From Squalus acanthias (lineage: Eukaryota), in assembly GCA_030390025.1 (NCBI GenBank), contig CM059431.1, forward strand, positions 120,158,001 to 120,222,000: a stretch of 64,000 nucleotides of DNA, in the 5' to 3' direction. Position numbers and translations under genes: made by a program. Shown here in pieces: positions 1-51,475 of the stretch (the first letter of the stretch is position 1; each line of letters opens with the position of its first letter). The notes beneath the pieces were generated by a model. It saw only the letters and a program-made list of their open reading frames with translations, did no database searches and was not told where the DNA came from.

Positions 1-1
1 G

Positions 2-5557: not shown

Positions 5558-5997
5558 TCGGAAAATGGCGTCACTCCCGCTTGCCACGTGCGCCGCGGAA
5601 GTTTGTACTCGATCATGATTTTCAAAGACTGTAAATACGTTTGCAACTCGACATGTGTTGAGAGTTGGTGTTGGTTATTTTGGTGATGGTGTTGTCGTTA
5701 AAAATGATTGTTTGGTTTTGGGTTTTGTTTTTCCTTTCCCTGAATAAAAAGATGAATATACAGGTGATACGAGAGGCATCGGCCTGGTCACACCGGGAAG
5801 GAAAACAAGTGGTGTAAGTTTGAAGGCAAATGATGCCTACGGTGATATAAAGTGTAATTTTCTTGGGAAATAAGGACGACGCAAAGACCCTAGATAGTTT
5901 AAGTTATGGGATTAAATTTGCTGGATTCGGAGAAAATCGAGATAATATTGCTCACCACAATATATTTTTGATACGATAAGCGGAGTTATTCGCATCA

Positions 5998-6008
5998 ACA
6001 GGAGGGAC
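5998..6008 (+). promoter_or_regulatory. Short polypurine tract (ACAGGAGGGAC)
   Basis: Purine-rich run immediately 5' of the TG that starts the 3' LTR; identical in copy B. Confidence 0.7.
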
Positions 6009-6585
6009 TGTAGAATTCGCAATATATCGCGATTTTATAAATAAGGAGAAAAACACATAGTTTCGTTCAAACAGCTTTTATTTCAGCAGAATGCTGTCAG
6101 GTTTTCAAAGTGGACACAAGCAGCTTGTAAAATGGCCGCCGCACCTCGTGGCAGAACATTCTAGACATTTCAACAGGCAGACAAGATGGCGTTCCAGTAA
6201 ACATTTGTGCAAGATCGATTAGGACTCAGCACATTTAAAATAATACACGAGACATCATGGTTTCACAGTATACACATAAATACTGAAATCGGTCTCCCAG
6301 GTGCGAATGAGGGCTGTTGTACCAAGTAATCAAGAACCCATCCAAAGACATTAATATGTAAAATCCCAACGACTCTACGATGAGAGAGCCGTTAGCGGGT
6401 AGTTACAGAAAACACTTGGAAGCCCCAAAACCCCTCCAGGGAGAACACCGACCGATTAAACAATGGGAGAAATATTAACAGGTACTCAGACAGTTACAAG
6501 TAGCCCCGAAACCCATTAAAACGAAGATCACCCTATACAAGACATTTGAGCGCCAAACCCTAACAAAAGAAAAGACATTAAGGTT

Positions 6586-6616
6586 GGGCGGGAAACGGAA
6601 GATTTTGCACTATAAT
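6586..6616 (+). promoter_or_regulatory. Putative LTR core promoter (GC box GGGCGG, ETS-like CGGAAG, TATAAT)
   Basis: Motif cluster conserved in all three LTRs in the window. Confidence 0.55.
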
Positions 6617-7376
6617 TGCAAGCTCCAAACCGTCCATCTTTCTCTTGACTCTTGACTCTTATTCGATTGACTCTTATCCTCATGGCTGCTCCTGTGCTCT
6701 TGACTCGCCGTCTTGTTCCTGCTTGCCTCGTGTCTCTTTTCAAAAGACTGTTGAACTTTACGATCCGCTTGAATCTACCTCGTGTCGTGTCGCGAAGACC
6801 TGTGTAGAACTGGGCTCTGAAGCCTTGAAACGGGCGCACCATTCCGCTAAGTCGGTAAACGGTGTTGGAACCGAAGGCCCGAGATGAGATGAGATGAGAT
6901 GAGATGAGATGAGAAGAGAAGACGGCAATACATCTCGTCATGGTCAGTAAACCCCGACCGCGCCCGAAATAAGTGAACTTTGTAGGTTTTGATCGGGAAT
7001 CCAAGGTCAGCACCGATCTTCATGACAGCAGACGTTCCAGCCTGCTAGCCGGAGCAGAAACGAGTAAACAAGTGGGGCCAGGAGACCCCCTGATCGACAC
7101 GTGGGCGCTGCGGTGAAAAACATCCGATCAGAGTTTTCGGAATTCTCCGAGTTATCACGAGTGGTGAGCATGAGTCTCGAATCCTACGAATCTAGCTTAG
7201 GACAGATATTGATAGGGGAGGGTTTTAAGTATTAAGGATAATTGTAATGTGTGCCCCCATTTACGATGTGTCGTTCGTTCCTCGTTTCCCCGAAATTAGT
7301 TACATAACTGCGTGTAAGATTGTACTGTCATTAATCTGTGCTTATGACATGTATTTCGTAATCTTAAGTATTATGC

Positions 7377-7382
7377 AATAAA
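7377..7382 (+). terminator. Putative LTR polyadenylation signal AATAAA
   Basis: Conserved at the equivalent position in copy B LTRs (38858-38863 and 50004-50009, minus). Confidence 0.55.
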
Positions 7383-7622
7383 GATTTTCCATTTCGTACC
7401 ATTCAACCGAGTCTACCTGAGTTTCATCTCCATTACTGCTCTCGCATCTAAGTCCAGTGTCTAGAACCGTAAGGGCGAGTGGGTCGAACCACTCACAGGG
7501 GTGTCTAGTGCTCCCAGACTGGCTGGAGACCAGAACAGGCAACAAGGCCTAAACCCGCACTAGCACCCGGGCTGCACAGAGCCACACGAATCTCACAGGC
7601 TGAGAGACAAAAAACCCTTACA

Positions 7623-10244: not shown

Positions 10245-13200
10245 TAGGGTTGCCAACTCTGGTTTGATGTACTCCTGGAGATTTGATCATGTAATATTTG
10301 CCCATTATTTACCTTAGTTGAATGCCTTAGTGTCACCAAGCTCCAAATAAAATAGTTCACTTTTTATTTTACAGCGAGATGAATAACATAATTTATAATC
10401 AAAGAAAGTACACAAAAGAATAGAAAGATTTAAGGATAAGTAATGTTTAAATAAAATATATTTCTGTGATGTTTCTATAGTATTGACCGCAATGAGCAAT
10501 ACCAAGTAAATTCCACTGATTCAATAAAAACATCTTCAATACCAGTAACAATTTTATGACTTTTTACTATACACAGCAAGTTATAAAACAGTAAATAAAA
10601 CCAAAGCCAAACCTAATTCAATTCACCGACTCCTTCAGGGATGTAAGGCTCAGTCCTCAGGGAGAAGCACCAAAGCTGCCTGACTCCCGTAATAACACAT
10701 TATACAACAGCACATACCACAGGCCAACAGGAACTCTCACTCCCTCCAGTTTGTGCTGCTCTCTCCCCAGTTTGTGATTCTCTATCTTCTTTCCCAGTTT
10801 GTGTTTCCCTCTCCCCAGTTTGTGTTTCTCTCTCCCTCTCTCCCCAGTTTATGTTTCTCTCTCCCACTCTCCCCAGTTTGTGTTGCTCTCTCTCCCTCCC
10901 TCCCCAGTTTGTGTTTCTCTCTCCCTCCCTCCCCAGTTTGTGTTTCACTCTCTCCCCAGTTTGTGTATCTCTCTCCCACTCTCCCCAGTTTGTGTTTCTC
11001 TCTCCCTCTCTCCCCAGTTTGTGTTTCTCTCTCCCTCCCTCCCCAGTTTGTGTTTCTCTCTCCCTCTCTCCCCAGTTTGTGTTTCTCTCTCCCTCTCTCC
11101 CCAGTTTGTGTTTCTCTCTCCCTCCCTCCCCAGTTTGTGTTTCTCTCTCCCTCCCTCCCCAGTTTGTGTTTCTCTCTCCCTCTCTCCCCAGTTTGTGTTG
11201 CTCTCTCTCCCTCTCTCCCCAGTTTGTGTTTCTCTCTCCCTCTCTCCCCAGTTTGTGTTGCTCTCTCTCCCTCTCTCCCCAGTTTGTGTTTCTCTCTCCC
11301 TCTCTCCCCAGTTTGTGTTTCTCTCCCTCTCTCCCCAGTTTGTGTTGCTCTCTCCCTCTCTCCCCAGTTTGTGTTTCTCTCTCTCTCTCTCCCCAGTTTG
11401 TGTTGCTCTCTCCCTCTCTCCCCAGTTTGTGTCTCTCTCTCTCTCTCCCCCCAGTTTGTGTTTCTCTCTCCCTCCCTCCCCAGTTTGTGTTTCTCTCTCC
11501 CCCCAGTTTGTGTTTCTCTCTCCCTCCCTCCCCAGTTTGTGTTTCTCTCTCTCCCCAGTTTGTGTTGCTCTCTCCCTCTCTCCCCAGTTTGTGTTTCTCT
11601 CTCTCTCTCCCCCCAGTTTGTGTTTCTCTCTCCCTCCCTCCCCAGTTTGTGTTTCTCTCTCTCCCCAGTTTGTGTTTCTCTCTCTCCGCAGTTTGTGTTT
11701 CTCTCTCTCCCCAGTTTGTGTTTCTCTCTCCCTCTCTCCCCAGTTTGTGTTGCTCTCTCTCCCTCTCTCCCCAGTTTGTGTTTCTCTCTCTCCCCAGTTT
11801 GTGTTTCTCTCTCTCTCCCCAGTTTGTGTTTCTCTCTCTCTCTCCAGTTTGTGTTTCTCTCTCTCTCTCTCTCTCCGCAGTTTGTGTTTCTCTCTCTCTC
11901 CCCAGTTTGTGTTTCTCTCTCCCTCTCTCCCCAGTTTGTGTTTCTCTCTCCCTCTCTCCCCAGTTTGTGTTGCTCTCTCTCCCTCTCTCCCCAGTTTGTG
12001 TTTCTCTCTCCCTCCCTCCCCAGTTTGTGTTTCTCTCTCCCTCCCTCCCCAGTTTGTGTTTCCCTCTCCCTCCCTCCCCAGTTTGTGTTTCCCTCTCCCT
12101 CCCTCCCCAGTTTGTGTTTCTCTCTCCCTCTCTCCCCAGTTTGTGTTGCTCTCTCTCCCTCTCTCCCCAGTTTGTGTTTCTCTCTCTCTCTCCCCCCAGT
12201 TTGTGTTTCTCTCTCCCTCTCTCCCCAGTTTGTGTTTCTCTCTCTCTCCCCAGTTTGTGTTTCTCTCTCTCCCCAGTTTGTGTTTCTCTCTCTCCCCAGT
12301 TTGTGTTTCTCTCTCTCTCCCTCCCCAGTTTGTGTTTCTCTCTCCCTCCCCAGTTTGTGTTTCTCTCTCTCTCTCCAGTTTGTCTTTCTCTCTCTCTCCG
12401 CAGTTTGTGTTTCTCTCTCTCCCCAGTTTGTGTTTCTCTCTCCCTCTCTCCCCAGTTTGTGTTTCTCTCTCTCTCCCCAGTTTGTGTTTCTCTCTCCCTC
12501 TCTCCCCAGTTTGTGTTTCTCTCTCCCTCTCTCCCCAGTTTGTGTTTCTCTCTCCCTCTCTCCCCAGTTTGTGTTTCTCTCTCTCCCCAGTTTGTGTTTC
12601 TCTCTCCCTCCCTCCCCAGTTTGTGTTTCTCTCTCCCTCTCTCCCCAGTTTGTGTTTCTCCCTCCCTCCCTCCCCAGTTTGTGTTTCTCTCTCCCTCTCT
12701 CCCCAGTTTGTGTTGCTCTCTCTCCCTCTCTCCCCAGTTTGTGTTTCTCTCTCCCTCTCTCCCCAGTTTGTGTTTCTCTCCCTCTCTCCCCAGTTTGTGT
12801 TGCTCTCTCCCTCTCTCCCCAGTTTGTGTTTCTCTCTCTCTCTCTCCCCAGTTTGTGTTTCTCTCTCCCTCTCTCCCCAGTTTGTGTTTCTCTCCCTCTC
12901 TCCCCAGTTTGTGTTGCTCTCTCCCTCTCTCCCCAGTTTGTGTTTCTCTCTCTCTCTCCCCCAGTTTGTGTTTCTCTCTCTCCCCAGTTTGTGTTTCTCT
13001 CTCCCTCTCTCCCCAGTTTGTGTTTCTCTCTCTCCCTCCCCAGTTTGTGTTTCTCTCTCCCCCCAGTTTGTGTTTCTCTCTCCCTCCCTCCCCAGTTTGT
13101 GTTTCTCTCTCTCCCCAGTTTGTGTTGCTCTCTCCCTCTCTCCCCAGTTTGTGTTTCTCTCTCTCTCTCCCCCCAGTTTGTGTTTCTCTCTCCCTCCCTC

Positions 13201-16200
13201 CCCAGTTTGTGTTTCTCTCTCTCCCCAGTTTGTGTTTCTCTCTCTCCCAGTTTGTGTTTCTCTCTCTCTCTCCGCAGTTTGTGTTTCTCTCTCTCCCCAG
13301 TTTGTGTTTCTCTCTCCCTCTCTCCCCAGTTTGTGTTGCTCTCTCTCCCTCTCTCCCCAGTTTGTGTTTCTCTCTCTCCCCAGTTTGTGTTTCTCTCTCT
13401 CTCCCCAGTTTGTGTTTCTCTCTCTCTCTCCAGTTTGTGTTGCTCTCTCTCTCTCTCTCCGCAGTTTGTGTTTCTCTCTCCCTCTCTCCCCAGTTTGTGT
13501 TTCTCTCTCTCCCCAGTTTGTGTTTCTCTCTCCCTCTCTCCCCAGTTTGTGTTTCTCTCTCCCTCTCTCCCCAGTTTGTGTTTCTCTCTCTCTCCCCAGT
13601 TTGTGTTTCTCTCTCCCTCTCTCCCCAGTTTGTGTTTCTCTCTCTCTCTCTCCCCAGTTTGTGTTTCTCTCTCCCTCTCTCCCCAGTTTGTGTTTCTCTC
13701 TCCCTCTCTCCCCAGTTTGTGTTTCTCTCTCCCTCCCTCCCCAGTTTGTGTTTCTCTCTCCCTCCCTCCCCAGTTTGTGTTTCCCTCTCCCTCCCTCCCC
13801 AGTTTGTGTTTCCCTCTCCCTCTCTCCCCAGTTTGTGTTTCTCTCTCCCTCTCTCCCCAGTTTGTGTTGCTCTCTCTCCCTCTCTCCCCAGTTTGTGTTT
13901 CTCTCTCTCTCTCCCCCCAGTTTGTGTTTCTCTCTCCCTCTCTCCCCAGTTTGTGTTTCTCTCTCTCTCCCCAGTTTGTGTTTCTCTCTCTCCCCAGTTT
14001 GTGTTTCTCTCTCTCCCCAGTTTGTGTTTCTCTCTCTCTCCCTCCCCAGTTTGTGTTTCTCTCTCCCTCCCCAGTTTGTGTTTCTCTCTCTCTCTCCAGT
14101 TTGTCTTTCTCTCTCTCTCCGCAGTTTGTGTTTCTCTCTCTCTCCCCAGTTTGTGTTTCTCTCTCCCTCTCTCCCCAGTTTGTGTTTCTCTCTCCCTCTC
14201 TCCCCAGTTTGTGTTTCTCTCTCCCTCTCTCCCCAGTTTGTGTTTCTCTCTCTCCCCAGTTTGTGTTTCTCTCTCCCTCCCTCCCCAGTTTGTGTTTCTC
14301 TCTCCCTCTCTCCCCAGTTTGTGTTTCTCCCTCCCTCCCTCCCCAGTTTGTGTTTCTCTCTCCCTCCCTCCCCAGTTTGTGTTTCTCTCTCCCTCTCTCC
14401 CCAGTTTGTGTTTCTCCCTCCCTCCCTCCCCAGTTTGTGTTTCTCTCTCCCTCTCTCCCCAGTTTGTGTTGCTCTCTCTCCCTCTCTCCCCAGTTTGTGT
14501 TTCTCTCTCTCCCCAGTTTGTGTTTCTCCCTCTCTCTCTCCCCAGTTTGTGTTTCTCTCTCCCTCTCTCCCCAGTTTGTGTCTTTATCTCCCTCTCTCCC
14601 CAGTTTGTGTTTCTTTCTCCCTCTCTCCCCAGTTTGTGTTGCTCTCTCTCCCTCTCTCCCCAGTTTGTGTTTCTCTCTCCCTCTCTCCCCAGTTTGTGTT
14701 TCTCTCTCCCTCTCTCCCCAGTTTGTGTTTCTCTCTCCCTCTCTCCCCAGTTTGTGTTTCTCTCTCCCTCTCTCCCCAGTTTGTGTTTCTCTCTCCCTCT
14801 CTCCCCAGTTTGTGTTTCTCTCTCCCTCTCTCCCCAGTTTGTGTTTCACTCACTCCCCAGTTTGTGTTTCTCTCTCCCTCTCTCCCCAGTTTGTGTTTCT
14901 CTCTCCCTCTCTCCCCAGTTTGTGTTTCTCTCTCCCTCTCTCCCCAGTTTGTGTTTCTCTCTCCCTCTCTCCCCAGTTTGTGTTTCTCTCTCCCTCTCTC
15001 CCCAGTTTGTGTTTCACTCTCTCCCCAGTTTGTGTTTCTCTCTCCCTCCCTCCCCAGTTTGTGTTTCTCTCTCCCTCTCTCCCCAGTTTGTGTTTCTCTC
15101 TCCCTCCCTCCCCAGTTTGTGTTTCTCTCTCCCTCTCTCCCCAGTTTGTGTTGCTCTCTCTCCCCAGTTTGTGTTTCTCTCTCCCTCCCTCCCCAGTTTG
15201 TGTTTCTCTCTCCCTCTCTCCCCAGTTTGTGTTTCTCTCTCCCTCTCTCCCCAGTTTGTGTATCTCTCTCCCTCTCTCCCCAGTTTGTGTTTCTCTCTCT
15301 CTCTCTCCCCAGTTTGTGTTTCTCTCTCTCTCTCTCCCCAGTTTGTGTTTCTCTCTCCCTCTCTCCCCAGTTTGTGTTTCTCTCTCCCTCTCTCCCCAGT
15401 TTGTGTCTCTCTCTCTCTCTCCGCAGTTTGTGTTTCTCTCTCCCTCCCTCCCCAGTTTGTGTTTCTCTCTCCCTCCCTCCCCAGTTTGTGTTTCTCTCTC
15501 TCCCCAGTTTGTGTTTCTCTCTCTCTCCCCCAGTTTGTGTTTCTCCCTCTCTCCCCAGTTTGTGTTTCTCTCTCTCTCCCCAGTTTGTGTTTCTCTCTCT
15601 CTCTCCCCAGTTTGTGTTTCTCTCTCTCTCTCTCCCCAGTTTGTGTTTCTCTCTCTCTCTCTCCCCAGTTTGTGTTTCTCTCTCTCTCCCCAGTTTGTGT
15701 TGCTGTATCTCCCTCCCTCCCCAGTTTGTGTTTCTTTCTCCCTCTCTCCCCAGTTTATGTTTCTCTCTCCCTCTCTCCCCAGTTTGTGTTGCTCTCTCTC
15801 CCTCTCTCCCCAGTTTGTGTTGCTCTCTCCCTCTCTCCCCAGTTTGTGTTTCTCTCTCTCTCCCCAGTTTGTGTCTTTATCTCCCTCCCTCCCCAGTTTG
15901 TGTTTCTTTCTCCCTCTCTCCCCAGTTTGTGTTGCTCTCTCCCACTCTCCCCAGTTTGTGTTGCTCTCTCTCCCTCTCTCCCCAGTTTGTGTTTCTCTCT
16001 CCCTCTCTCCCCAGTTTGTGTTTCTCTCTCCCTCCCTCCCCAGTTTGTGTTTCTCTCTCCCTCCCTCCCCAGTTTGTGTTTCTCTCTCCCTCCCTCCCCA
16101 GTTTGTGTTTCTCTCTCCCTCCCTCCCCAGTTTGTGTTTCTCTCTCCCTCCCTCCCCAGTTTGTGTTTCTCTCTCCCTCCCTCCCCAGTTTGTGTTTCTC

Positions 16201-38619: not shown

Positions 38620-40329
38620 TGTAAGGGATTCCTGACCCTGCGTGTCTCGCAGCCTGTGAGATTCACGCGGCTCTGTGCAGCCTGTATGTCAGTGCGGGTC
38701 TAGGCCTGGTCTCCAGCCAGTCTGGGAACACTAGACACACCTGCGAGTGGTTCGAATCACTCTCCCTTACGGTTCTAGACACTGGACTTAGATGCGAGAG
38801 CAGTAATGGAGATAAAACTCATGTAGACTTGGTTTGAATGGTACGAAATGGAAAATCTTTATTGCATGATACTTAAAATTATGAAATACATGTCATAAGC
38901 ACAGATTAATGACAGTACAATCTTACAAACAGTTATATAGTCGATCTTAGGGAAACGAGGAACGAACGGCACAAAGTAAATAGGGGCACACATTACAAAT
39001 ATCCTTAATCCTTAAACCCTCCCCTATCAATATCTATCCTAAACTAGATTCGTAGGATCTTGAGACTCATGCTCACCACTCGTGATAACTCGGAGAAATT
39101 CCGAATAGCTGATCGGATGTTTTTCACCGCAGCACCCACGTGTCGGTCAGGAGATCTCCTGGTCCCACTTGTTTACTTGCTTCTGCTGCTCCGGCTAGCA
39201 GGCTGGACCGTCTGCTGTGATGAAGACCTGTGTTGGTTGGCTTAACAGGTACTCTTGGAGCACAGTTGTCAATATCATCGATACGATGTGTTTTCACGTT
39301 CCAATCTCCTTGGACACAGTCCCGTTATCGTCGATGCAATATGTTTTGTTAAAAGTTCAAAAGAGAAATCTTCCTGGCGAGGAAAACTTGGCTAATCGAC
39401 CTACAGGCGCGGTCGGGATTTACTGACCGTGGCGATGGATATGGTCTTCCTCTCTTCTCATCTCATCTCATCTCATCTCATCTCATCTCGGGCCTTTGGT
39501 TCCGCTGCCAGTTACCAACATAGGTCTTCGTTACGCGACACGAGGTAGATCCGAACGGATCAGAAAGTTCAACAGTCTTTTCAGAAGAGGCAACAGGCAA
39601 GCAGAAGCCCAACTACGAGTACACAGGAGCAGCCACGAGGTTACGAATCGACCGGATAAAGGCACAGGAGCAAGCGAGCGAATGCAAGAGCAAGAGAGAG
39701 AATGGACGGTTTGGAGCCTGCAATTATAGTGCAAAAATCTTCCGTTTCCCGCCCAACTATAATGTCCATTCTTTTGTTTAGGGTTTGGCGCCCAAATGTC
39801 TTGTATGGGTGATCTCCGTTCTTAATGGGTTTCGGGGCTACTCGTAAATGTCTGAGTACCTGTTAATATTTCTCCCATTGTTAAATCGGTCGGTGTTCTC
39901 CCTGGAGGGGTTTGGGGCTTCCAAGTGTCCTGTATAACTACCTGCTAACGGCTCTCTCATCGTAGAGTCGTTGGGATTTTACATATTAATGTCTTTTGGA
40001 TGGGCCCTTGAGTACTCGGTACAATGGCTTTCCTTTGTACCTGGGAGACCGATTCCAGTATCTATGTTTATACTGCAAACCCATAATGTCTCGTGTATTA
40101 TCTTCACTGTGCTGAATCGTAATCGATCTTGCACAAATGTTTATTGGAACGCCATCTTGTCTGCCTGTTGAAAAGTCTAGAATGTTCTGTCACGAGGTGC
40201 GGCGGCCATTTTACAGGCTGCTTGTGTCCAATTTAAACCTGCCAGCATTCTGCTGAAATAAAAGCTGTTTGAACGAAACTTTGTGTTTTCTCCTTATTAA
40301 TCACATCGCGATATATTGCGAATTCTACA
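38620..40329 (-). repeat. 3' LTR of copy B (1710 bp)
   Basis: Direct repeat of 49753-51475 apart from a 13-bp deletion near 38707 and two substitutions seen by eye. Confidence 0.97.
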
Positions 40330-40340
40330 GTCCCTCCTGT
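40330..40340 (-). promoter_or_regulatory. Polypurine tract ACAGGAGGGAC
   Basis: Directly abuts the 3' LTR. Confidence 0.7.
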
Positions 40341-40771
40341 TGATGCGAATAACTCCGCTTATCGTATCAAAAATCATAGTGGTGAGCAATATTATCTCGA
40401 TTTCTCTCCGAATCCAGTAAATTAATCCCATAATTTTTAACTTATCTAGGGTCTCTGTGTCGTCCTTATTTCCCAAGAAAATTACATTTTACATCACCGT
40501 AGGCATTATTTGCCCTTAAACTTACACCACTTGTTTTCCTTCCCGGCGTAACCAGGCCGATACCTCTCGTATCACCTGTATATTTGTCTTTTATTCAGGG
40601 AAAGGAAAAAACAAAACCCAAAACCAAACAATCAACACCATCACCAAAATAATCAAAACCCCAACTCTTAAAACATGTCGAGTTCCCAACGTATTTACAA
40701 TCTCTGAAAATCTTATATGAGTACAAACTTCCGCGGCGCACGCGGCGAGCGGGAGTGACGCCATTTTCCGA

Positions 40772-43123
40772 TTACACGGTGCTCTCATCGTGCACGCGCA
40801 CGTAACGTTCTCGCCACTCTCCCGTGTTTTCATGCTTGGTGAGGCGTTTGTCTCTTTTACAATGTATGACCAATAGGTACACTACAATAAACACTTGACA
40901 TACGACTAAAATGTGGGAGGCTATTCTGATCCATGAAGGCACTTCAATATTAGTGAACAGATTCCACCACGGTGGAACTACTATGTCCAAAATGTCTGTT
41001 CCTATTTCGACAGTTTTCTGCTCTAATGTATAAAAATGTTTCTGTGATACCGCGACGGCTTTCAGAAGTTTGGTTAAGTGTTCAGGGAGAGGGGGAATGA
41101 GGTATCCAAAATGCGCGACAAATCGCTGCAAGTCGGTGAAATTCTCTTTTACTGTGAGATGAACAGTGGATGGTTCAGGGATTGGGATGATTCGCTGTTG
41201 TGCTACTTGAACTTCAGCCCTGGGTTTAAAACAGAAACTGCTGTCACTCACCGGACACCGGCTACGGTTTCCATGCTGGTAGTGTTGCGCTGCAGTGGTA
41301 ACACAATATGTTCCACCCCCGATGTATGCTACCTGCGGAGGCACATGATCTTGTGCCATTGCCTCCATGGTGCAATTCATGGACTTGGCGCCAGCCGTTC
41401 TGAACCCGCACTGTGGTGTTAAAAAGGCATTCAAGTGCTGGGGGCACAGTATTATGTGTGCTCCCCTGCCACGACAACCAGAGAGATCTGTACCTGTCAT
41501 CGTTTGCTCCCAGCGGATGACGTAAGGTGGAACCGCTGCATAACGAATGTGGGCTCCCCCCTGAATGACACCAATGTTCTCTACCCGATATACCGGGGCG
41601 GGCTTTGCTGTGTCGCCCAAAACCGGCATGCGTAATACTATTCCCATAATAGTATGGTTTGATCGTCCGCAGTCCACGGGGACTGGGTAAGCTTCTGAAG
41701 CTAGCCTGAGCTGGCACGGACTTAATGCGTTCTGAAAAGGGTGGAGCGCCCGTAGGTGTTTGTTACTTATCCAGGACGGAACCAAACCTTGTTTTAAATC
41801 CTCCAAATTACTGCGGCCCTCGCCCAGTAACCACGCCCCGTAAAGCACGCACACCTCGTTCTGCGCAGCTTGATCGGATGCATTCCGATCTTCCCTGATC
41901 AGGGCATTTACCGTACGCGCATGTTTCTCCAGCTCTGCTATAATTTCCTTTAAATGGAGAGTCATGGCTTGGTCCTCGTGTAGACCTGACCCTACCACTT
42001 TATTCTCATCTGTTAAAATGTCTTTTAACTGTGTCTTTAAACCATTAATCTGGGTCTGCAGCTCCACACTGTCTAGAGCGTTGACCACAGATGTACCTGT
42101 GTTAAAAGCAGTGAACGCATCGTTCACCAAACCCCTTCTTTGCCTCCCTACTTGATCCAAAACTTCCTGTGGTGCGGTGTACAAACTTGTTTTATCAATT
42201 TCTGCAAAATCGAATTCGTAAAATTGTCTGAACATCTTGGTCAACAGGACCTGGTACAACTGTTCCGTCTTTTTGGGGCACCATTCTGGTAACCGCACCT
42301 CGGTGAGATTTAAAATCACCGAGGCCACCGCGTAATGTACCCCCTGAAATAGTATCTGGTCTGTGGGGACCAGTACCAAACCATTCCCGGGTCCCTTACT
42401 AGTTTTTGGGCACCCTTCTTCCTCAGCTAGAACCACCGGAATCGTGGGCGGGGCTTTGCGTGGGCGCGTAATGAGTTCAGTGGCATTTACTGGGATCGGG
42501 GAGAATGGGGCTCCGCACCCCCTGGTGCTCGCATCCCACCTCATCCCCTGTCCGTTATCCTGCCATTGATTAATAAAAAATATGGAGATGCCTTTGGGGC
42601 AAACGTACTTTGACCCCCACATACATACATAAATTCCCTCATCCGGTTCCCACCATTTGTCCCAACAGACTTTCACTTGTCCGTCTGTCCCCGTAATTGT
42701 CCGATGGGTATTATTACCCAGTCGTTCCCACTCGACCGAAGAGTTCCTCATAGTTTTGCTCAGCTTTCGTAGCCACCACCATCGGCTCAATGGGACATTC
42801 CCACTACAAGTCAAACAAATCCGTTTGCCGACGGTGACGCTGATCCTGGGTGCGATGATCCTTACTTTGGGGCACAGTAAAGAAGTCTCTTTGTAGGCAA
42901 ACCCCGAGGTGCTAGAATACTCCGTTGAGTTCGTTCCCAGCCATCCTGGCCACCTTCCCTTGTGGAAATAGGTGCTGGTCCCCTCTGCCTTCCGTCTTCC
43001 GGTCCCATCCACCGCGATGGGGGCCGTGTCCCCGGAACATCCAAACACCACGACATCCTTGGTGCGGCCTCGATAGGCCAATCCACATCCGATTGCCACG
43101 AGCAATACTAGAATTCGTTCCAT
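40772..43123 (-). CDS. env: Env glycoprotein, 783 aa (signal peptide, Ig-like domain, F-like class I fusogen, TM)
   Basis: Intact ORF with the same motifs as 3206-5557; about 27 amino-acid differences by manual count. Confidence 0.9.
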   Translation of the reverse strand: MERILVLLVAIGCGLAYRGRTKDVVVFGCSGDTAPIAVDGTGRRKAEGTSTYFHKGRWPGWLGTNSTEYSSTSGFAYKETSLLCPKVRIIAPRISVTVGKRICLTCSGNVPLSRWWWLRKLSKTMRNSSVEWERLGNNTHRTITGTDGQVKVCWDKWWEPDEGIYVCMWGSKYVCPKGISIFFINQWQDNGQGMRWDASTRGCGAPFSPIPVNATELITRPRKAPPTIPVVLAEEEGCPKTSKGPGNGLVLVPTDQILFQGVHYAVASVILNLTEVRLPEWCPKKTEQLYQVLLTKMFRQFYEFDFAEIDKTSLYTAPQEVLDQVGRQRRGLVNDAFTAFNTGTSVVNALDSVELQTQINGLKTQLKDILTDENKVVGSGLHEDQAMTLHLKEIIAELEKHARTVNALIREDRNASDQAAQNEVCVLYGAWLLGEGRSNLEDLKQGLVPSWISNKHLRALHPFQNALSPCQLRLASEAYPVPVDCGRSNHTIMGIVLRMPVLGDTAKPAPVYRVENIGVIQGGAHIRYAAVPPYVIRWEQTMTGTDLSGCRGRGAHIILCPQHLNAFLTPQCGFRTAGAKSMNCTMEAMAQDHVPPQVAYIGGGTYCVTTAAQHYQHGNRSRCPVSDSSFCFKPRAEVQVAQQRIIPIPEPSTVHLTVKENFTDLQRFVAHFGYLIPPLPEHLTKLLKAVAVSQKHFYTLEQKTVEIGTDILDIVVPPWWNLFTNIEVPSWIRIASHILVVCQVFIVVYLLVIHCKRDKRLTKHENTGEWRERYVRVHDESTV

Positions 43124-43412
43124 CCTTCCTTGGTTCCTGTGATCAGATAGAATGAGGTAGCCAGCCTCGCAAGAGTCTCTGGCTTTTGTGAAGGGTGAGC
43201 GGGTCCCCTGACCTCGCCTCACGTAAACTTCAACGTTTGCTGAATAAACTTCCACTAAACCTATCTTTAAAAACTCCCATCATTTTATCGTTTTCTGTTA
43301 AAAACACTACAAACTTAGCCTTATTAAAAAAAACTATAAACTTAACCTTGAACTATAAACTTAAAACTTAACTTCTTACTATACAGTGCCGCCCGTTCTC
43401 AGGGCGGCCCCT

Positions 43413-46400
43413 TTAAATTCTGAGAAGGCTGCTGCGAGCTCTTCCCGACGGTGGGAGGGCACTGACCCTTCCCTCTGATCTGCCGCAGCCTGTTGCTGCG
43501 CTGACCTTTCCCTCTGATCTGCCGCAGCCTGTTACTGCTGCGATGTGGCCGGTCTGTACCCGGGTTATCTTAACCTGAAGTCTACGCCTTGGGGCAGTCT
43601 GGGGACATGACCACATCCTCCTGGGCTGGGGTTCTCTGCTTGACCTACGGGGAGTTGCTATGGGCGGGGGTTCCGTGACGGACGGACCGGGTTCCGAGAC
43701 CTCCAACGGGATGACCTGGGGTTCCATCACAGTCGCCGGCTCCGCCTCCGCTGACTCCGCCTCCCTAACCTCGGGGCTGGCAGTTCGTGGCTCCGCCCTG
43801 CTCGGCCCAGCAGGCGGCCCTTCACTCGTGATCTCTGCCTCCCCTGAGGACTGGACGTTCAAAGCGGGCGGCCACATCTCTGGGAGCCACACCGGTACTC
43901 TCTGTGCTCCTATAGCGGCTGGCCCTGCCTCCTCTAGCTCCTCCCTCCTGTCCTCGGGACCTGCAGCTTGTGTGTCCACCCTGTGTGGGTCTCTACCTAT
44001 AGGCCCCATTCCTTCCAGACCGTTCCTCAGGAACCACCCGTCATCATCACTATGCTCATCTGCACTATCCTCATCTGACCAGGGTACCCTGGGTTCTTCC
44101 TCATCTAACCCCCAACTCCAGAAAAACGCTGCATGATCGTCCGGGATGTCCCTTCCCCTGATGCAAGCTGCTATGCCTGCCTGTGTGCCTTGTGGTCCTA
44201 CCTGGGGCTGTGCTTTCCCATTGGCGGGATTTACCCCTGTAGTTTTCCCCTGCGCACCTGGCTGGTACAGTTTGCATTGGTTTATGTGGAACCACTTAGT
44301 GCGCCGAGGTACTTTTACGGCGTAAACCATGGGACTCGCCTTGTCTACAATGTTGTAGGGTCCCATATACAGTGGTTCCAGACTCCCTACTCTGGCGTAG
44401 TTTCTGACCATGACCTGGTCTCCTACTTCCCACTCCCGCGTTTTGCGGGGTTCCAGCAACAAGCGATTGCCCTGATGCTGCCTTCCCATGTTCCCAGCCG
44501 CCTGCTCATAAACTTGCTTCAGGCGCTCCAAGAGAGTCTGGGCGAACTTGTCCCTGCTTATCTCTTGGAGCTGACCCTCAGTGAGCACCGGTGCTAGCAC
44601 ATGGGTGGGGGTTCGCATGAGCCTCCCAGTCATTACCTCGTGCGGGGAGTACCCCGTACTTTTTGACTGACTGGCCCGGACCCCCATGAGGACTAAAGGC
44701 AGAACTTCCGCCCATTTTTGGGGCGAGTTCCTAGTCTCTTTCCTCAATTTCTCCTTCAGGGTCCGGTTCATACGTTCAACAATCCCGGATGACTGGGGAT
44801 TGTGTGCTACGTGCCACTTCCCTTCAATGCCCAAAAGCATGAGGGTGTTCTGCATCACCTGGCCGGTGAAATGACTCCCTTGGTCTGACTCCACAAAACG
44901 GGGAAGTCCCCACCGCGAGAACACTTCCCGGACCAAGATTTTTGCTGTACCCAGTGCCGTAGCTGTTCGACAAGGGAAGGCTTCCACCCACTTGGAAAAC
45001 ACATCCACCAGGACGAGGCAGTACTTATAACCTCCCTGGGTGGTGGGCAGGGGTCCTATATAGTCGATCTGTATCGACTGCCATGGTCCCTCTACCCTTC
45101 TTACGTGTCCCATGGGCACCTTCCTTTTCTGGGGGTCTGGGTTGTTTGCAGCGCACACAAGACAGTTTGCACAGAACTCGCGGACTTGTTCCCTGAGCCC
45201 TGGCCACCATCCCGCTTGCTCTACCCGTTGCCAGGTAACCTCGGGCCCGGGGTGCCCTGCCCCTGGTCCCTCGTGAGCCAACTGGAGGAATTCCCTCCTG
45301 TGCTGCTGCGGCACAACCCACTGCTCCTCGCGGAACAGCATGCCTTCCTTAACTGAGAGGGTTGCCGTACTGTACGGACCTTCTACCCGCCTCCCCTCAG
45401 CAATCGTTTTTAGGACTGCTTTTAGGGCGGGATCCTGGGCTTGGACGGTCTTGAGGTCTAGGGGCAATGCTACCCTGGTGTTCCCGGGATTCCCATCCCC
45501 GCCTCGGACCGCTGCTATGGGTCCGGTCCTATAGGGGTTCCAGAAAATGCCGTCGCGGGCACCCTCCCTGGCTAGCGCATCCGCCTGCCGGTTGCCCTCC
45601 CCACGGGGCTCTGTGGAGGAGTGAGCTTTCACCTTATGGATGAAAGTCTCTCCTTCCTCCCCTACTGCTGCTGCTAAGATCTTTTCCAGCAAGGGCTTCA
45701 CCGTTAAAGGTCGCCCGTCCGCGGAGGTGTATCCGCGGCGGGACCAAATGGCCAGGTATTCCGTACACGAATTGCAGGTGAACATACTGTCCGAGCAAAT
45801 CGTGTATGGGGTTGGGAAAATGTCTGGGTGGGTCACAACGTACACCACGGCAGACAGCTCAGCCTGCTGCGCGCTCATGGTGCTAGGGAGCTTGATTGCC
45901 AGGGCAAGGTCTGCCGCAGGGTCATAAACTCCACACCCTGTGAGTCGCTCGCCAGCAGACACTGTGCTAGACCCATCAACATAAATCTCGCGCCCAGTGG
46001 GATGTATCCCGGCCCGTAAACCTATGTTGACATCCCACACCCCTTCCACCGAACACCGGTGGGCTGTACCGGGGTATACCAAATTGGCCGCAAGCCTGGG
46101 CTCGCAAAGACCTTTTACTCTAAGATCCAACTGGGAGAGAAGAAGGGTCCAACGCGCAATGCGTGCGCTGCTTACGGTCCCGTCTTTAATCCTCCCATCC
46201 AGAAGCATCTTAGTTGGTGTGTGATGTGTGAGGAGAGTGATGGGAGAGAGCCCTGTGAAGATCGCTGATCTTTTCACAGCCCAATGCGTGGCTAAAAGGT
46301 GCCTTTCGCAATTGGAGAAACTTCTCTCCACATCCGTTAATACCCTGGATGAGTAGACAACCGGCCTCAGCTTGCCGTGACGCTCTTGGAGCAGCACGGC

Positions 46401-47936
46401 GCTTAAGCTGTCTCCGCTGGCAGCTACCTCCAGGAAAAACTCCTTCCCCCCATCTATGGCCCCTAAGGCTGGCGCGGTCTGCAGATCCCCTTTTAACTTC
46501 TCGAAGGCTGCTTGGCAGCCCTCGTCCCAAAGCCACTCCACCCCCTTATGGAGGAGTCGGAGGAGCGGCGCCGCTGTGGCCGCATAATCTTCGATAAAAT
46601 CCCTGCAGTAACCGGTCAGTCCCAAGAAGGACCTCACACCCCTTACGTTGTTGGGAATCGGTAATTCTTGCACCGACTCCCTCCTTGCTTTGTCTATGGC
46701 TCTTTCCCCAGCGCGTATGGTCAGTCCCAGGAATTTTACTTCCCGCTGACCGATACGTGCTTTCTTAGGGTTTATTTTAAAACCCTTTCTCGCTAACAGT
46801 TCCAATAACTCGTCCAGTAGTGGTCCGTGCTCCTCCCTTGAGTCCGTAAATAGGAGCAAATCATCCACATACTGTACTATCTGATTGGGCTGACTAAACT
46901 CCTTTAAGCTTCCTGCCATACACTGATGAAAAATACTGGGGCTATTGTGGAAACCCTGTGGCAGACAGTTCCACGTGTACTGTTGCCCTTTGAAAGTAAA
47001 GGCAAACTTGTACTGGTCCTCTCGCCGCAGCGGGATGGACCAAAAACCGTTCGAGATATCCAGCACCGTGAACGTGGTCGCGGACGCTGGGATGCTCCCT
47101 ATTAGGTCAGCAACTGCTGCTACTGTGGGCGCGCAGGCGGGAATGTTACTGTTAAGGACTCTGTAGTCCACCGTGGCTCTCCACGAATTATCCGGCTTCC
47201 TAACCGGCCATAATGGGGAGTTCACGTGTGTGGCTATCGGCCTCAACACGCCCTGCTGCACCAAGGAAGACATTGCTGTCTCCATATCGGGTTCTGCTTC
47301 TTTGGGGAAGTTATACTGCTTTTGGGGTCGGGTCATGGGGTCCCCATCTACGCTGACCTCAAACCCGACCACTCTCCCACAATCGTGCTTGTGGGTTGCA
47401 AACGCGTGCATATTATCTGACACGTACGTTTGCATGTCCGTTGGGACATCTGCGACCATAAGCCTGAGGTCGTAGCCTCCGGATGGCTGTACGGTACACA
47501 GGACCCCTGTTTCTTCCTCCCCCGGAATCACTATTACCTCGCCTTTTTCACCTTTAGCCCCCCAGAGACAGTGATTTCTGAGGTCCACGAGGATCCCGTG
47601 TCCCGCTAGGAGATCGGACCCGAGAATACCTCTTCCACCCCCCTTTTGCCATGCCATCAGTATACACTTCCACTTAAGGCGAAGTGTTCCTAAACGAATG
47701 GATAGCGGAAGGGAAAACGTGCCAGCCTGTTCTTTTCCTGTGAACCCTGCCAACGTGAATGGGACCTTGGTAGATAGCGGCGAGTCAAAAGGGTTATCTG
47801 TATGGATTATGGTGCAAGAAGCTCCCGTGTCCAACAAATAACTGCCCTTCTGTTTCTCTACCTCCATCTCCACCACAGGTCGCCTCCACGCATCATAGCT
47901 AAGCGGACACAGGTAGACGGGCTGTGCTGGTTCTAG
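43413..47936 (-). CDS. pol: Pol: aspartic protease, RT, degenerate RNase H (tether), RNase H, integrase, GPY motif, about 290-aa low-complexity tail; probably made by gag stop readthrough
   Basis: LLDTGAS and GILGSDLL; LPQGFHNSP and YVDD; IYVDGSS..AEL..SDS..GNRQAD; HHCC plus IDYIGP, SDQGSHF, VERMN. The frame is open right up to the gag TGA. Confidence 0.96.
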   Translation of the reverse strand, partial: LEPAQPVYLCPLSYDAWRRPVVEMEVEKQKGSYLLDTGASCTIIHTDNPFDSPLSTKVPFTLAGFTGKEQAGTFSLPLSIRLGTLRLKWKCILMAWQKGGGRGILGSDLLAGHGILVDLRNHCLWGAKGEKGEVIVIPGEEETGVLCTVQPSGGYDLRLMVADVPTDMQTYVSDNMHAFATHKHDCGRVVGFEVSVDGDPMTRPQKQYNFPKEAEPDMETAMSSLVQQGVLRPIATHVNSPLWPVRKPDNSWRATVDYRVLNSNIPACAPTVAAVADLIGSIPASATTFTVLDISNGFWSIPLRREDQYKFAFTFKGQQYTWNCLPQGFHNSPSIFHQCMAGSLKEFSQPNQIVQYVDDLLLFTDSREEHGPLLDELLELLARKGFKINPKKARIGQREVKFLGLTIRAGERAIDKARRESVQELPIPNNVRGVRSFLGLTGYCRDFIEDYAATAAPLLRLLHKGVEWLWDEGCQAAFEKLKGDLQTAPALGAIDGGKEFFLEVAASGDSLSAVLLQERHGKLRPVVYSSRVLTDVERSFSNCERHLLATHWAVKRSAIFTGLSPITLLTHHTPTKMLLDGRIKDGTVSSARIARWTLLLSQLDLRVKGLCEPRLAANLVYPGTAHRCSVEGVWDVNIGLRAGIHPTGREIYVDGSSTVSAGERLTGCGVYDPAADLALAIKLPSTMSAQQAELSAVVYVVTHPDIFPTPYTICSDSMFTCNSCTEYLAIWSRRGYTSADGRPLTVKPLLEKILAAAVGEEGETFIHKVKAHSSTEPRGEGNRQADALAREGARDGIFWNPYRTGPIAAVRGGDGNPGNTRVALPLDLKTVQAQDPALKAVLKTIAEGRRVEGPYSTATLSVKEGMLFREEQWVVPQQHRREFLQLAHEGPGAGHPGPEVTWQRVEQAGWWPGLREQVREFCANCLVCAANNPDPQKRKVPMGHVRRVEGPWQSIQIDYIGPLPTTQGGYKYCLVLVDVFSKWVEAFPCRTATALGTAKILVREVFSRWGLPRFVESDQGSHFTGQVMQNTLMLLGIEGKWHVAHNPQSSGIVERMNRTLKEKLRKETRNSPQKWAEVLPLVLMGVRASQSKSTGYSPHEVMTGRLMRTPTHVLAPVLTEGQLQEISRDKFAQTLLERLKQVYEQAAGNMGRQHQGNRLLLEPRKTREWEVGDQVMVRNYARVGSLEPLYMGPYNIVDKASPMVYAVKVPRRTKWFHINQCKLYQPGAQGKTTGVNPANGKAQPQVGPQGTQAGIAACIRGRDIPDDHAAFFWSWGLDEEEPRVPWSDEDSADEHSDDDGWFLRNGLEGMGPIGRDPHRVDTQAAGPEDRREELEEAGPAAIGAQRVPVWLPEMWPPALNVQSSGEAEITSEGPPAGPSRAEPRTASPEVREAESAEAEPATVMEPQVIPLEVSEPGPSVTEPPPIATPRRSSREPQPRRMWSCPQTAPRRRLQVKITRVQTGHIAAVTGCGRSEGKVSAATGCGRSEGRVSALPPSGRARSSLLRI

Positions 47937-49748
47937 TCATGGGGCACTATTAGACGGTCCTGCGGCACCTACGGGGCCGGTTGCGACCGCCACCTGTCCA
48001 CGCGCATTCAAAACCAGCTTGCGCATGGCTCCTAACACTGCTTCGAGGTCGTCGGGAGGGGTGGGTGCCTTGGCTTCCTTAGCCGGGACAGGCGCCTGGG
48101 CTCGCACCGCGGGATTTTTATCCTTGGAATCCTTCCAAGGGTTCCTGCAATGCTTGCGCCAGTGCCCTGTCTTCCCACACCCGTAACAAGCATTACTTGC
48201 CTGTGGGGCGCGATTACCCTCCTGATGCCACTCTCTTTGATACGGGGCTGCGGGTCGTACCTCATGTACTCTTCCCTTAAGGGGACGTGTTGCCATACCC
48301 CTTATATTGCGATAACCTAACGTGAGTCGATTCAAGACCGACTCTTCCGTAATGTTGAGGTCATTGGGATCAAACCATGCTTTTGCCTGCTCTCTAACGG
48401 CTGGTAAACTGTTGGCTATTATGCACCTAAGCCAATGAGTTAAAGCGGCGCCTTCCACATCTTCGCGCTCGGGCGCACCTAGACAGCTGCGCTCATATAC
48501 TGGCCACAGCCTGTCGGCAAAAACCTTCGGGGGTTCTCCCTCCATCTGCACTGTCTGTCCCACTCTAGCAAACGGACCTTCGTCGTTCGCCCCCAACACT
48601 TCTAGGACCTCGTTCTTTAATTCCTCATAACTCTTGGTTCCCCTCTTGCTCTCGCCTGAGAGACACTGAAGGACCGAGCTGTCTAATGAGAACAGCAGCA
48701 TTTTTGCTGTCTCCCCATCATCGCAGCCGTTAATGGCTGCGGCTTGCTCAACTTCTCTGAAATGTACGGAAGGGTCGTCTATCTCGGTCAGCTTCCGTAC
48801 GTGATTTATCATAGCTCTCAGCTGATGTGAACTGTGAGGCAACACCAGCTGTCCGAGGAGATCCCCCGGTTCTTCCCCACCGTTTCTGCTTGGGCCCCTT
48901 TTAATACCCGTTACTGGATACAACGATCCCTTTTCTGCTTCCTTTTCAAAGGGCTCTTTTGTTTCTTCCATTGCTTCCTCCCTAACCCAGGTTTCTGAAT
49001 AGCTGGGTGGCGCGGAGGGCGCAGTGGCTACTACTTCTTCTGCTTTACTTGGTGGGGATTTTCTAAATCTCTCATTTACTAGCGGCTGGTGCGCCGACGG
49101 ATTGATAAGGCACACCATGCCGTTCGCATTGTTCACGGCCTTTTTGAGGTTCTCTATCTCCCTTTGGCAGGCGCTATGATCGGCTCCCTGAAACTTATCC
49201 TCAAGGGCCAACTTATATGCCGACCTAACCCCCATTAAGCTCTCTTCTTGAGTTCTTATCTGGGCAGCTTGGCGGTTACATCTTTCCTTTAACCTGCTCT
49301 CATTCAATTTTGCCTCAGTGACCTGGCACTCGAGATAATCTATCCTTGTTTTAAGGTGACTGGAGACTTCCTGGCTTTCTTGGTGTAACTCATTTAAATT
49401 CTTAATGAGCACCTCCCCTCCAGAAACCTTCTCCTCCATTTCTCCCTCTAAATGACTGATTCGAGCTACTAGCGCTGTAATGGTCTGGTTTGAAATCTGA
49501 ACCTGCCTTTTGTAACACATAAGCCAGACTGCTTTCTCAAGTGTCTTTCTATGTTCTTTACTATCTGTCCACCTTTCAGCTGCCTCTAGTGGGCTCTTAT
49601 CCGCTAACAATTCACTTATCCATTTCTTAGTTAGATTAACCTTTCCAAACACATAATCCGCTATCTTTTCCTGCATAACATTTCGTACAGTCATTCCAAA
49701 ATCTAACACACTACCCTCTCGCTGCCAGTGTCCTGCCGCGGTCGCCAT
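47937..49748 (-). CDS. gag: Gag, 603 aa (coiled coil, PSAPPSY late domain, capsid-like region, CCHC knuckle)
   Basis: ATG in AAAATGG context at 49748; CYGCGKTGHWRKHC; uninterrupted. Confidence 0.93.
   Translation of the reverse strand: MATAAGHWQREGSVLDFGMTVRNVMQEKIADYVFGKVNLTKKWISELLADKSPLEAAERWTDSKEHRKTLEKAVWLMCYKRQVQISNQTITALVARISHLEGEMEEKVSGGEVLIKNLNELHQESQEVSSHLKTRIDYLECQVTEAKLNESRLKERCNRQAAQIRTQEESLMGVRSAYKLALEDKFQGADHSACQREIENLKKAVNNANGMVCLINPSAHQPLVNERFRKSPPSKAEEVVATAPSAPPSYSETWVREEAMEETKEPFEKEAEKGSLYPVTGIKRGPSRNGGEEPGDLLGQLVLPHSSHQLRAMINHVRKLTEIDDPSVHFREVEQAAAINGCDDGETAKMLLFSLDSSVLQCLSGESKRGTKSYEELKNEVLEVLGANDEGPFARVGQTVQMEGEPPKVFADRLWPVYERSCLGAPEREDVEGAALTHWLRCIIANSLPAVREQAKAWFDPNDLNITEESVLNRLTLGYRNIRGMATRPLKGRVHEVRPAAPYQREWHQEGNRAPQASNACYGCGKTGHWRKHCRNPWKDSKDKNPAVRAQAPVPAKEAKAPTPPDDLEAVLGAMRKLVLNARGQVAVATGPVGAAGPSNSAP
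49730..49747 (-). promoter_or_regulatory. Primer-binding site TGGCGACCGCGGCAGGAC (tRNA-Ser-like pattern)
   Basis: TGG starts 5 nt after the LTR-terminal CA. TGGCG-N7-CAGGA resembles complements of vertebrate tRNA-Ser 3' ends; the exact tRNA is not verified. Confidence 0.65.
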
Positions 49749-49752
49749 TTTC

Positions 49753-51475
49753 TGTAAGGGATTCCTGACCCTGCGTGTCTCGCAGCCTGTGAGATTCACG
49801 CGGCTCTGTGCAGCCTGTATGTCAGTGCGGGTCTAGGCCTTGTTGCCTGTTCTGGTCTCCAGCCAGTCTAGGAACACTAGACACACCTGCGAGTGGTTCG
49901 AATCACTCTCCCTTACGGTTCTAGACACTGGACTTAGATGCGAGAGCAGTAATGGAGATAAAACTCATGTAGACTTGGTTTGAATGGTACGAAATGGAAA
50001 ATCTTTATTGCATGATACTTAAAATTATGAAATACATGTCATAAGCACAGATTAATGACAGTACAATCTTACAAACAGTTATATAGTCGATCTTAGGGAA
50101 ACGAGGAACGAACGGCACAAAGTAAATAGGGGCACACATTACAAATATCCTTAATCCTTAAACCCTCCCCTATCAATATCTATCCTAAACTAGATTCGTA
50201 GGATCTCGAGACTCATGCTCACCACTCGTGATAACTCGGAGAAATTCCGAATAGCTGATCGGATGTTTTTCACCGCAGCACCCACGTGTCGGTCAGGAGA
50301 TCTCCTGGTCCCACTTGTTTACTTGCTTCTGCTGCTCCGGCTAGCAGGCTGGACCGTCTGCTGTGATGAAGACCTGTGTTGGTTGGCTTAACAGGTACTC
50401 TTGGAGCACAGTTGTCAATATCATCGATACGATGTGTTTTCACGTTCCAATCTCCTTGGACACAGTCCCGTTATCGTCGATGCAATATGTTTTGTTAAAA
50501 GTTCAAAAGAGAAATCTTCCTGGCGAGGAAAACTTGGCTAATCGACCTACAGGCGCGGTCGGGATTTACTGACCGTGGCGATGGATATGGTCTTCCTCTC
50601 TTCTCATCTCATCTCATCTCATCTCATCTCATCTCGGGCCTTTGGTTCCGCTGCCAGTTACCAACATAGGTCTTCGTTACGCGACACGAGGTAGATCCGA
50701 ACGGATCAGAAAGTTCAACAGTCTTTTCAGAAGAGGCAACAGGCAAGCAGAAGCCCAACTACGAGTACACAGGAGCAGCCACGAGGTTACGAATCGACCG
50801 GATAAAGGCACAGGAGCAAGCGAGCGAATGCAAGAGCAAGAGAGAGAATGGACGGTTTGGAGCCTGCAATTATAGTGCAAAAATCTTCCGTTTCCCGCCC
50901 AACTATAATGTCCATTCTTTTGTTTAGGGTTTGGCGCCCAAATGTCTTGTATGGGTGATCTCCGTTCTTAATGGGTTTCGGGGCTACTCGTAAATGTCTG
51001 AGTACCTGTTAATATTTCTCCCATTGTTAAATCGGTCGGTGTTCTCCCTGGAGGGGTTTGGGGCTTCCAAGTGTCCTGTATAACTACCTGCTAACGGCTC
51101 TCTCATCGTAGAGTCGTTGGGATTTTACATATTAATGTCTTTTGGATGGGCCCTTGAGTACTCGGTACAATGGCTTTCCTTTGTACCTGGGAGACCGATT
51201 CCAGTATCTATGTTTATACTGCAAACCCATAATGTCTCGTGTATTATCTTCACTGTGCTGAATCGTAATCGATCTTGCACAAATGTTTATTGGAACGCCA
51301 TCTTGTCTGCCTGTTGAAAAGTCTAGAATGTTCTGTCACGAGGTGCGGCGGCCATTTTACAGGCTGCTTGTGTCCAATTTAAACCTGCCAGCATTCTGCT
51401 GAAATAAAAGCTGTTTGAACGAAACTTTGTGTTTTCTCCTTATTAATCACATCGCGATATATTGCGAATTCTACA
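49753..51475 (-). repeat. 5' LTR of copy B (1723 bp)
   Basis: Minus strand TGTAGAATTCGC...CCCTTACA; TATAAT at 50869-50874 with an upstream GC box. Confidence 0.97.

Follow-up and report, generated by a model that had tools for sequence, protein, structure and literature searches.

The lokiretroviruses were described by Wang and Han (2020; PMC7947760), whose main text models the envelope protein (Env) with only a signal peptide, a fusion peptide, coiled coils and a transmembrane (TM) segment, reports a match of Env to PF00523 at E 2e-7, and names amphibians and the coelacanth among the hosts. The element considered here is a long terminal repeat (LTR) element present as two copies, A and B, in opposite orientation in a 64,000-nucleotide stretch of DNA from Squalus acanthias (GenBank assembly GCA_030390025.1, contig CM059431.1, positions 120,158,001 to 120,222,000 of the forward strand), hereafter the window. 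It has the order LTR-gag-pol-env, dual RNase H domains and an Env resembling the fusion protein F, and by element layout and Env fold the copies in the window are a lokiretrovirus-like endogenous retrovirus. In paramyxoviruses and pneumoviruses the attachment protein is separate from F. The Env of the element is fairly likely to be an F-type fusion protein with an add-on of about 225 residues (17-242), which has an immunoglobulin (Ig)-like centre and would serve in cis as a receptor-binding head.

Env of copy B is encoded by an open reading frame (ORF) of 783 amino acids plus stop at 40772-43123 on the minus strand, as given by the ORF list and its translation; all parts of it named below lie on the same strand. 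It begins with a signal peptide (residues 1-16, MERILVLLVAIGCGLA, 43076-43123), assigned from the hydrophobic N-terminus and an AlphaFold2 (AF2) helix at residues 2-15, with a deduced cleavage point. The conserved N-terminal segment that follows (residues 17-87, 42863-43075) holds C29, C84 and a GRWPGWLG-NST-YSS motif, with 7 invariant and further near-invariant columns in close relatives; its AF2 predicted local distance difference test (pLDDT) scores are below 60, and it had no usable match in the ESM Atlas. The Ig-like domain occupies residues 88-175 (42599-42862) and is marked by C103, W115-117, R141 and D161xGxYxC167, with extra cysteines at 106, 153 and 175. A post-Ig segment and Pro-rich linker (residues 176-242, 42398-42598, pLDDT 27-40) with C203, a sequon at N213, the motif PRKAPPTIP at 221-229, and C238 precede the first F-aligned residue.

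The F2-like core (residues 243-326, 42146-42397) was delimited by VIA alignments to F chains and by pLDDT. The alignments start at model residue 243-245, equivalent to F residues 23-38 in 48 of 50 rows, and residues 241-300 reach pLDDT values of 82-93. A furin-type cleavage motif, RQRR (residues 327-330, 42134-42145, regular-expression match), aligns across the relatives that cover this position; cleavage there is putative. The fusion peptide is taken to be GLVNDAFTAFNTGTSVVNAL, which comes next; the hydrophobic stretch directly after RQRR is GLVNDAFTAFNTGTSVV. The F1-like subunit (residues 331-783, 40775-42133) was assigned from AF2 secondary structure and from Foldseek and VIA matches to F; its predicted layout comprises the fusion peptide, an HRA helix (383-444), beta domains (477-650), an HRB helix (679-712), a C-terminal TM helix (~730-755) and a short tail. 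The full-length AF2 model (46-row alignment) has a mean pLDDT of 61.7, with 80-94 in the core. Against the PDB it gave 237 Foldseek matches at E <= 0.001, those listed being paramyxovirus or pneumovirus F proteins and the best human parainfluenza virus 3 (hPIV3) F at 1.1e-10, and the F fold (DI-DIII, HRA, HRB) was recognized in it. Pfam Fusion_gly (PF00523) was not matched by Env at E <= 10, nor by 11 relatives at E <= 1. As modelled, Env is a fusion protein of class I whose fold is that of paramyxovirus/pneumovirus F; the assignment is one of fold, not of sequence-family membership.

An initial annotation of the window had reported an Ig-type signature at 42610-42850, after the signal peptide of Env and in front of a PRKAPPTIP linker and an F-like part, with the same motifs in copy A. 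The signature is present at residues 92-171 of copy B as C103, W115-117 and D161-E-G-I-Y-V-C167, the region reading ISVTVGKRICLTC...RWWWLRK...HRTITGT...VCWDKWWEPDEGIYVC, and the F alignments do begin beyond the linker. In copy A the same pins lie within residues 88-175 at 3467-3730 on the plus strand. The motif is indeed downstream of the signal peptide but does not follow it directly, about 70 residues (17-87) intervening. The Cys-Trp-Cys spacings are 12-14 and 50-52 residues, with about 64 residues between C103 and C167, and an Arg (R141) stands 20 residues before the Asp (D161), as in V-type domains. The pin residues of the Ig superfamily (IgSF) are all present at spacings which we take to be the canonical V-type values. 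The pattern C-x(10-17)-W-x(40-62)-DxGxYxC arose in 7 of 20,000 shuffles of Env, and in a six-frame translation of the whole window it was found only in the two env copies.

Every weak sequence or structure signal for residues 88-175 leads to Ig V/I-set domains, none being significant alone. In Pfam, Ig_3 was the sole family matched by the N-terminal fragment (E 0.084), by a 103-residue segment (E 0.013, with 16.4 bits where the cut-off is 30) and by the corresponding segments of relatives (5 of 7 matched, best E 0.0011). Searched against the PDB, the family profile had as its top match the IgV domain of CRTAM (E 0.026), the alignment spanning 88 positions and keeping Cys, Trp and DEGxYxC in register; 5 of its 9 matches were IgSF proteins. 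The 5 matches of a single-sequence search included JAM-A and two VL chains of antibodies, and the full-length profile reached TIGIT and JAM-A at E 0.14-0.5. By ESM Atlas features the nearest clusters were all Ig families, with a score of 0.90 that the tool itself rates as a lead only. An AF2 model of residues 17-240 (10 sequences) is all-beta from residue 101 on, and the top Foldseek rows for it were V domains of antibodies, T-cell receptors and VNAR (E 0.025-0.07, none at E <= 0.001). Strands at about 102-107, 139-146, 149-154 and 165-168 are common to both AF2 models. A first profile of the N-terminal alignment had retrieved only zinc-finger proteins from the PDB and was rejected, the cause being a chimeric gene model (P0005) with a zinc-finger part; the alignment was replaced by a trimmed one for the profile searches.

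The wider distribution of the head was traced in a full HMMER scan of the whole Env against 1.84 billion representative proteins, which returned 50 proteins at E <= 0.001. Those that match best in the N-terminal part also match outside the Ig segment and are all Env fragments, and the Cys, Trp and DxGxYxC pins are conserved in the skate and shark relatives that cover them (53-74% identity). No host IgSF protein, nor any other non-Env protein, was among the 50, several shark proteomes and one skate proteome being included in the database. The proposal in the initial annotation that a host Ig domain had been captured thus found no recognizable donor, and a recent capture from such a donor is unsupported. 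Env relatives were found in Xenopus, Pelodytes, Mantella and Latimeria, whose host groups are among those that PMC7947760 names, and the distant full-length Envs (16-26% identity) align to the element's Env only from residue ~221-237 onward. The heads of two of these distant lineages give weak Ig signals at the same position: P0035 (V-set E 0.0014, Ig_3 0.008, I-set 0.019) and the bamboo-shark Env P0014 (Ig_3 0.1, Ig_2 0.11; UniRef name 'Ig-like domain-containing protein'). These signals argue against a recent capture in the element. A recent origin of the Ig-like domain by host capture in this element is improbable, and the domain forms part of a modular N-terminal region of the Env family. 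The data are best read as a conserved core that carries a modular, rapidly evolving head, which is Ig-like in three or more divergent lineages.

Several observations weigh against an Ig-like head. The Ig hidden Markov model scores lie at 13-19 bits, the Pfam gathering thresholds being 24-30, and none reaches its cut-off; the Pfam comparison named in the initial annotation did single out Ig_3 but at 13.8-16.4 bits against 30. Neither the best PDB match (E 0.026) nor the best Foldseek match (E 0.025) is significant. The fold prediction returned an all-beta arrangement from residue 101 on, but at low pLDDT and with no significant Foldseek match: the mean pLDDT is 36 in the N-terminal model, block means are 36-62 over residues 81-180 of the full-length model, and the two AF2 models differ at the C strand, one giving a strand and the other a helix. 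AF2 may merely echo the Ig motif, and the many antibodies in the PDB bias such searches towards Ig rows. Among the distant relatives, two frog Env heads matched 0 Pfam families and had no IgSF protein among 4 PDB matches, and Ig pins picked out in them by eye were discarded as unsupported by either search. The Cys-rich head of a Mustelus/Pristiophorus lineage had Pfam matches in 0 of 4 cases, and two Envs, P0038 and P0048 (Latimeria), are without any add-on. Comparison by hhalign of the Ig segment with the N-terminal segments of distant Envs gave probabilities of 0.5% and 4.4%, the latter over 14 columns, and no homology between the heads. Alignment depth was limited, with 11 proteins from a word-based search and 50 from the full scan; copies from the own genome added no diversity that could improve AF2, because all 150 that were scored are 98-100% identical. 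On balance, residues 88-175 are quite likely a strongly diverged V/I-type IgSF domain. The value of this assignment is for now limited, since the Ig fold rests on sub-threshold, low-confidence evidence.

Selection was assessed by comparing env of copies A and B, which differ at 27 amino acids and 61 synonymous codons. Over the whole Env (residues 1-783) the nonsynonymous divergence (dN) is 0.017 and its ratio to the synonymous divergence (dN/dS) 0.127. The values are 0.028 and 0.30 for residues 17-210, 0.024 and 0.33 for residues 87-175, which contain 5 of the amino-acid differences, and 0.013 and 0.088 for residues 211-783. The estimate that about 13 of about 27 substitutions fall in the first 210 or so residues was exact (13 of 27 in residues 1-210, Fisher p = 0.015). 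The faster evolution of the front proposed from it holds in that dN in the head is about twice that of the rest, but dN/dS (0.30 against 0.088) gives no sign of positive selection on the head in this comparison. Head and core are both under purifying selection.

In the proposed mechanism, the Ig-like domain would be held by a canonical C103-C167 disulfide around the core Trp, possibly with a second C106-C153 bridge, and would be flanked by the conserved 70-residue segment and the Cys- and Pro-containing linker. After removal of the signal peptide, furin would cut at RQRR, and the add-on would stay on the N-terminal, F2-containing subunit, resembling a retroviral surface subunit (SU), atop the fusion core. 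C282 and C425 are candidates for the disulfide between F2 and F1, presumably equivalent by position to that of paramyxovirus F. The head would then engage a cell-surface molecule and so trigger F-type refolding. Because the element is a retrovirus without a separate attachment protein, an in-cis receptor binder is the most likely role of the add-on; the chance that it does bind a receptor is put at about even. A more specific proposal is that an IgSF V-type domain, derived in ancient times from a CRTAM-, JAM- or TIGIT-like adhesion receptor of the host, forms the in-cis receptor-binding head of cartilaginous-fish F-type Envs, and possibly of lokiretroviruses more widely, and acts by mimicking a host ligand. 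This is speculative and rather unlikely as a whole; if true, it would give the first demonstration of an F-type class I fusogen with an Ig receptor binder of its own, and would explain how an F protein serves a retrovirus that has no attachment protein.

Three other explanations of the N-terminal region were weighed. It could be a Cys-rich, beta-rich domain of another or new fold, in which the Ig motif arose by convergence or chance and the weak Ig matches are a by-product of the motif. Against this, five different methods agree on the clan and on the residues, the Cys-Trp-Cys spacings agree with the canonical values of V-type domains, as does the distance of 20 residues from the Arg to the Asp, and the full pattern appears in so few of the shuffles; a different fold is accordingly regarded as unlikely. 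The initial annotation had also suggested an immune decoy, and capture of host Ig domains by viruses is known. A recently captured domain acting as decoy or immunomodulator, not as receptor binder, would agree with such captures, with the higher dN of the front (0.028 against 0.013 in the core) and with the nearest weak PDB matches, the adhesion and immune receptors CRTAM, TIGIT and JAM-A. It is at odds with the lack of any host protein among the 50 matches at E <= 0.001 in 1.84 billion, shark and skate proteomes included, with the occurrence of the domain, at 53-74% identity, in Env fragments from skates and from several orders of sharks, with the correspondingly placed weak Ig signals of two distant Env lineages, and with dN/dS values of 0.30-0.33 that show no positive selection. 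A retroviral Env moreover requires a receptor-binding part, and no other candidate for it is evident, so that the decoy is held to be improbable.

The same low standing is given to the explanation of the add-on as a cap or glycan shield, which would bind no specific receptor but would stabilize the F-like trimer in its prefusion state or govern how it is triggered, attachment residing elsewhere. The four N-glycosylation sequons in residues 65-213 would suit a shield, and the Envs P0038 and P0048 suggest that a core may work without an add-on; purifying selection on the region and its conserved Cys/Trp framework count against it, although none of these results separates it from receptor binding. 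The receptor-binding head remains the favoured interpretation of the add-on.

The family to which the element belongs is young and very large, and has open env frames. When the own 3.7-Gb genome was searched with the Env N-terminus, 6068 candidates came up; the 150 that were scored are all 98-100% identical, and most of them lie in open frames of 815-859 amino acids. In 27 further genomic copies, the variant codons in env 236-727 comprise 19 nonsynonymous and 66 synonymous ones, and there is no stop codon. These low nonsynonymous counts and the lack of stops fit, and suggest, an Env-dependent amplification of the family. Variant counts for the head (residues 17-235) in the same 27 copies (5 nonsynonymous, 14 synonymous) were set aside as unusable, the copies having been chosen by similarity in exactly that part.

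Sequencing runs from five organisms (A-E, six studies) contain 52-67% of the sampled 31-mers of env (40772-43400). By estimate this share corresponds to about 98% identity, that is, to a near-identical env in several organisms, whether through close relationship or transfer. One RNA-Seq run of another organism gave 0 reads against the element. In three contig runs of unspecified kind env was covered deeper than pol, a difference in which RNA and copy number are indistinguishable, and no joints were seen. Public gene models join Env fragments of the family to host genes (P0004, P0005, P0041, P0012), among them 'Niban 1-like' and 'ZFP2-like' in Pristiophorus japonicus and an F-box protein. These fusions are probably annotation chimeras, though they may reflect co-option of Env fragments.

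Provirus copy B (LTR-gag-pol-env-LTR, about 12.9 kb, 38620-51475, minus strand) was delimited by its LTR pair and ORFs. The LTRs (38620-40329 and 49753-51475), each about 1.7 kb long, are 99.1% identical over 1723 aligned positions, and the gag, pol and env frames are all open. The gag ORF (603 amino acids, 47937-49748, minus strand) has a CCHC zinc knuckle close to its C-terminal end, recognized by inspection of the sequence (CYGCGKTGHWRKHC). Its N-terminal stretch, about 170 residues (1-170; 49240-49748, minus strand), appears coiled-coil-like by eye and is without a Pfam match; an SMC-like gene is reported for some lokiretroviruses in the main text of PMC7947760. The pol ORF (1484 amino acids, 43413-47867, minus strand) encodes reverse transcriptase, a tether domain of the Ty3 RNase H-like type, RNase H and integrase, and ends in a long tail of low complexity; its Pfam matches are to RVT_1 (5e-36), RT_RNaseH_2 (9e-21, with RT_RNaseH also matched), RNase_H (1e-18), Integrase_H2C2 (2e-17) and rve (6e-15). 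The tail after integrase (residues ~1190-1484, 43413-44300, minus strand) comprises about 300 acidic, Pro- and Ser-rich residues of low complexity; its DNA is only 82% identical between copies A and B, and long antisense ORFs at 43660-44136 and 44133-44597 overlap it.

Copy A (window positions 1-7609) extends past the window start and lacks most of pol, its env frame still being open. Within 1-5672 it consists of gag (527-1795), for which a Pfam search of the ORF gave no match, then only the C-terminal tail of pol (1982-2902), and then env (3206-5557, plus strand, in a frame open from 3047), whose protein is 97% identical to that of copy B. The N-terminal part of gag forms a separate ORF (62-457). 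By a dS of 0.13 copy A belongs to a different subfamily from copy B. A satellite array of several kb at 10670-14250 has a period of 23-31 nt, mostly 29 nt.

As compared with the lokiretroviruses of PMC7947760, so far as set out in its main text, the element shares the LTR-gag-pol-env layout and the two RNase H-type domains, and its Env shares the signal peptide, basic cleavage site, fusion peptide, coiled coils, TM segment and similarity to Mononegavirales F; it differs in that Env is without a PF00523 match, its relation to F being one of fold. The main text of PMC7947760 contains none of the terms immunoglobulin, Ig-like, N-terminal, receptor, shark, cartilaginous or Chondrichthyes, and a follow-up lokiretrovirus paper contains none of immunoglobulin, Ig-like, shark, cartilaginous or Chondrichthyes. 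Among the papers searched, none joins lokiretrovirus with immunoglobulin or Ig-like, and none joins endogenous retrovirus, shark, envelope and fusion glycoprotein. The Env described here is an F-type retroviral Env with a previously undescribed, probably Ig-like N-terminal head. The F-like lokiretrovirus Envs have been described without an account of how the virus finds its cell, for which the add-on of about 225 residues offers a concrete candidate receptor-binding part. The presence, absence or replacement of the head among Env lineages suggests a modular head, and such arrangements govern host range in other enveloped viruses. A young, large family with an open env under purifying selection, in a host group that the main text of PMC7947760 does not name, would be a good natural system for the evolution of F-type Envs.

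Among other retroviruses, it is prototype foamy virus Env gp130 (8rm1) that the Env family profile matches best by sequence in the PDB; at a marginal E of 0.0087 the match ranks above any paramyxovirus F and covers a beta-rich part of the core (residues ~470-620, ~41260-41710). A sequence-level link between spumavirus Env and F-type Envs is possible on this basis. Foamy virus Env is likewise retroviral and carries a large receptor-binding part on its N-terminal subunit; that domain is not known to be an Ig domain. In gammaretrovirus SU the receptor-binding domain is N-terminal, is built on a beta-sandwich core and precedes a Pro-rich region, but it is joined to a gamma-type transmembrane subunit, not to an F-type core, and no IgSF sequence signature is known in it. 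With IgSF V/I-set domains (CRTAM 4h5s, JAM-A 1f97, TIGIT 5v52) the head shares the B-strand Cys, the C-strand Trp and DxGxYxC in register; unlike those receptors it matches at E values of only 0.026-0.9 and has extra cysteines (106, 153, 175) and Trp clusters, and it is assignable to no subfamily. In comparison with paramyxovirus and pneumovirus F (hPIV3 1ztm, respiratory syncytial virus 3rki, Langya virus 8tve), identity in the VIA alignments is 6-13%; in these proteins F2 directly follows the signal peptide, whereas in the Env of the element about 225 residues precede the F2 core.

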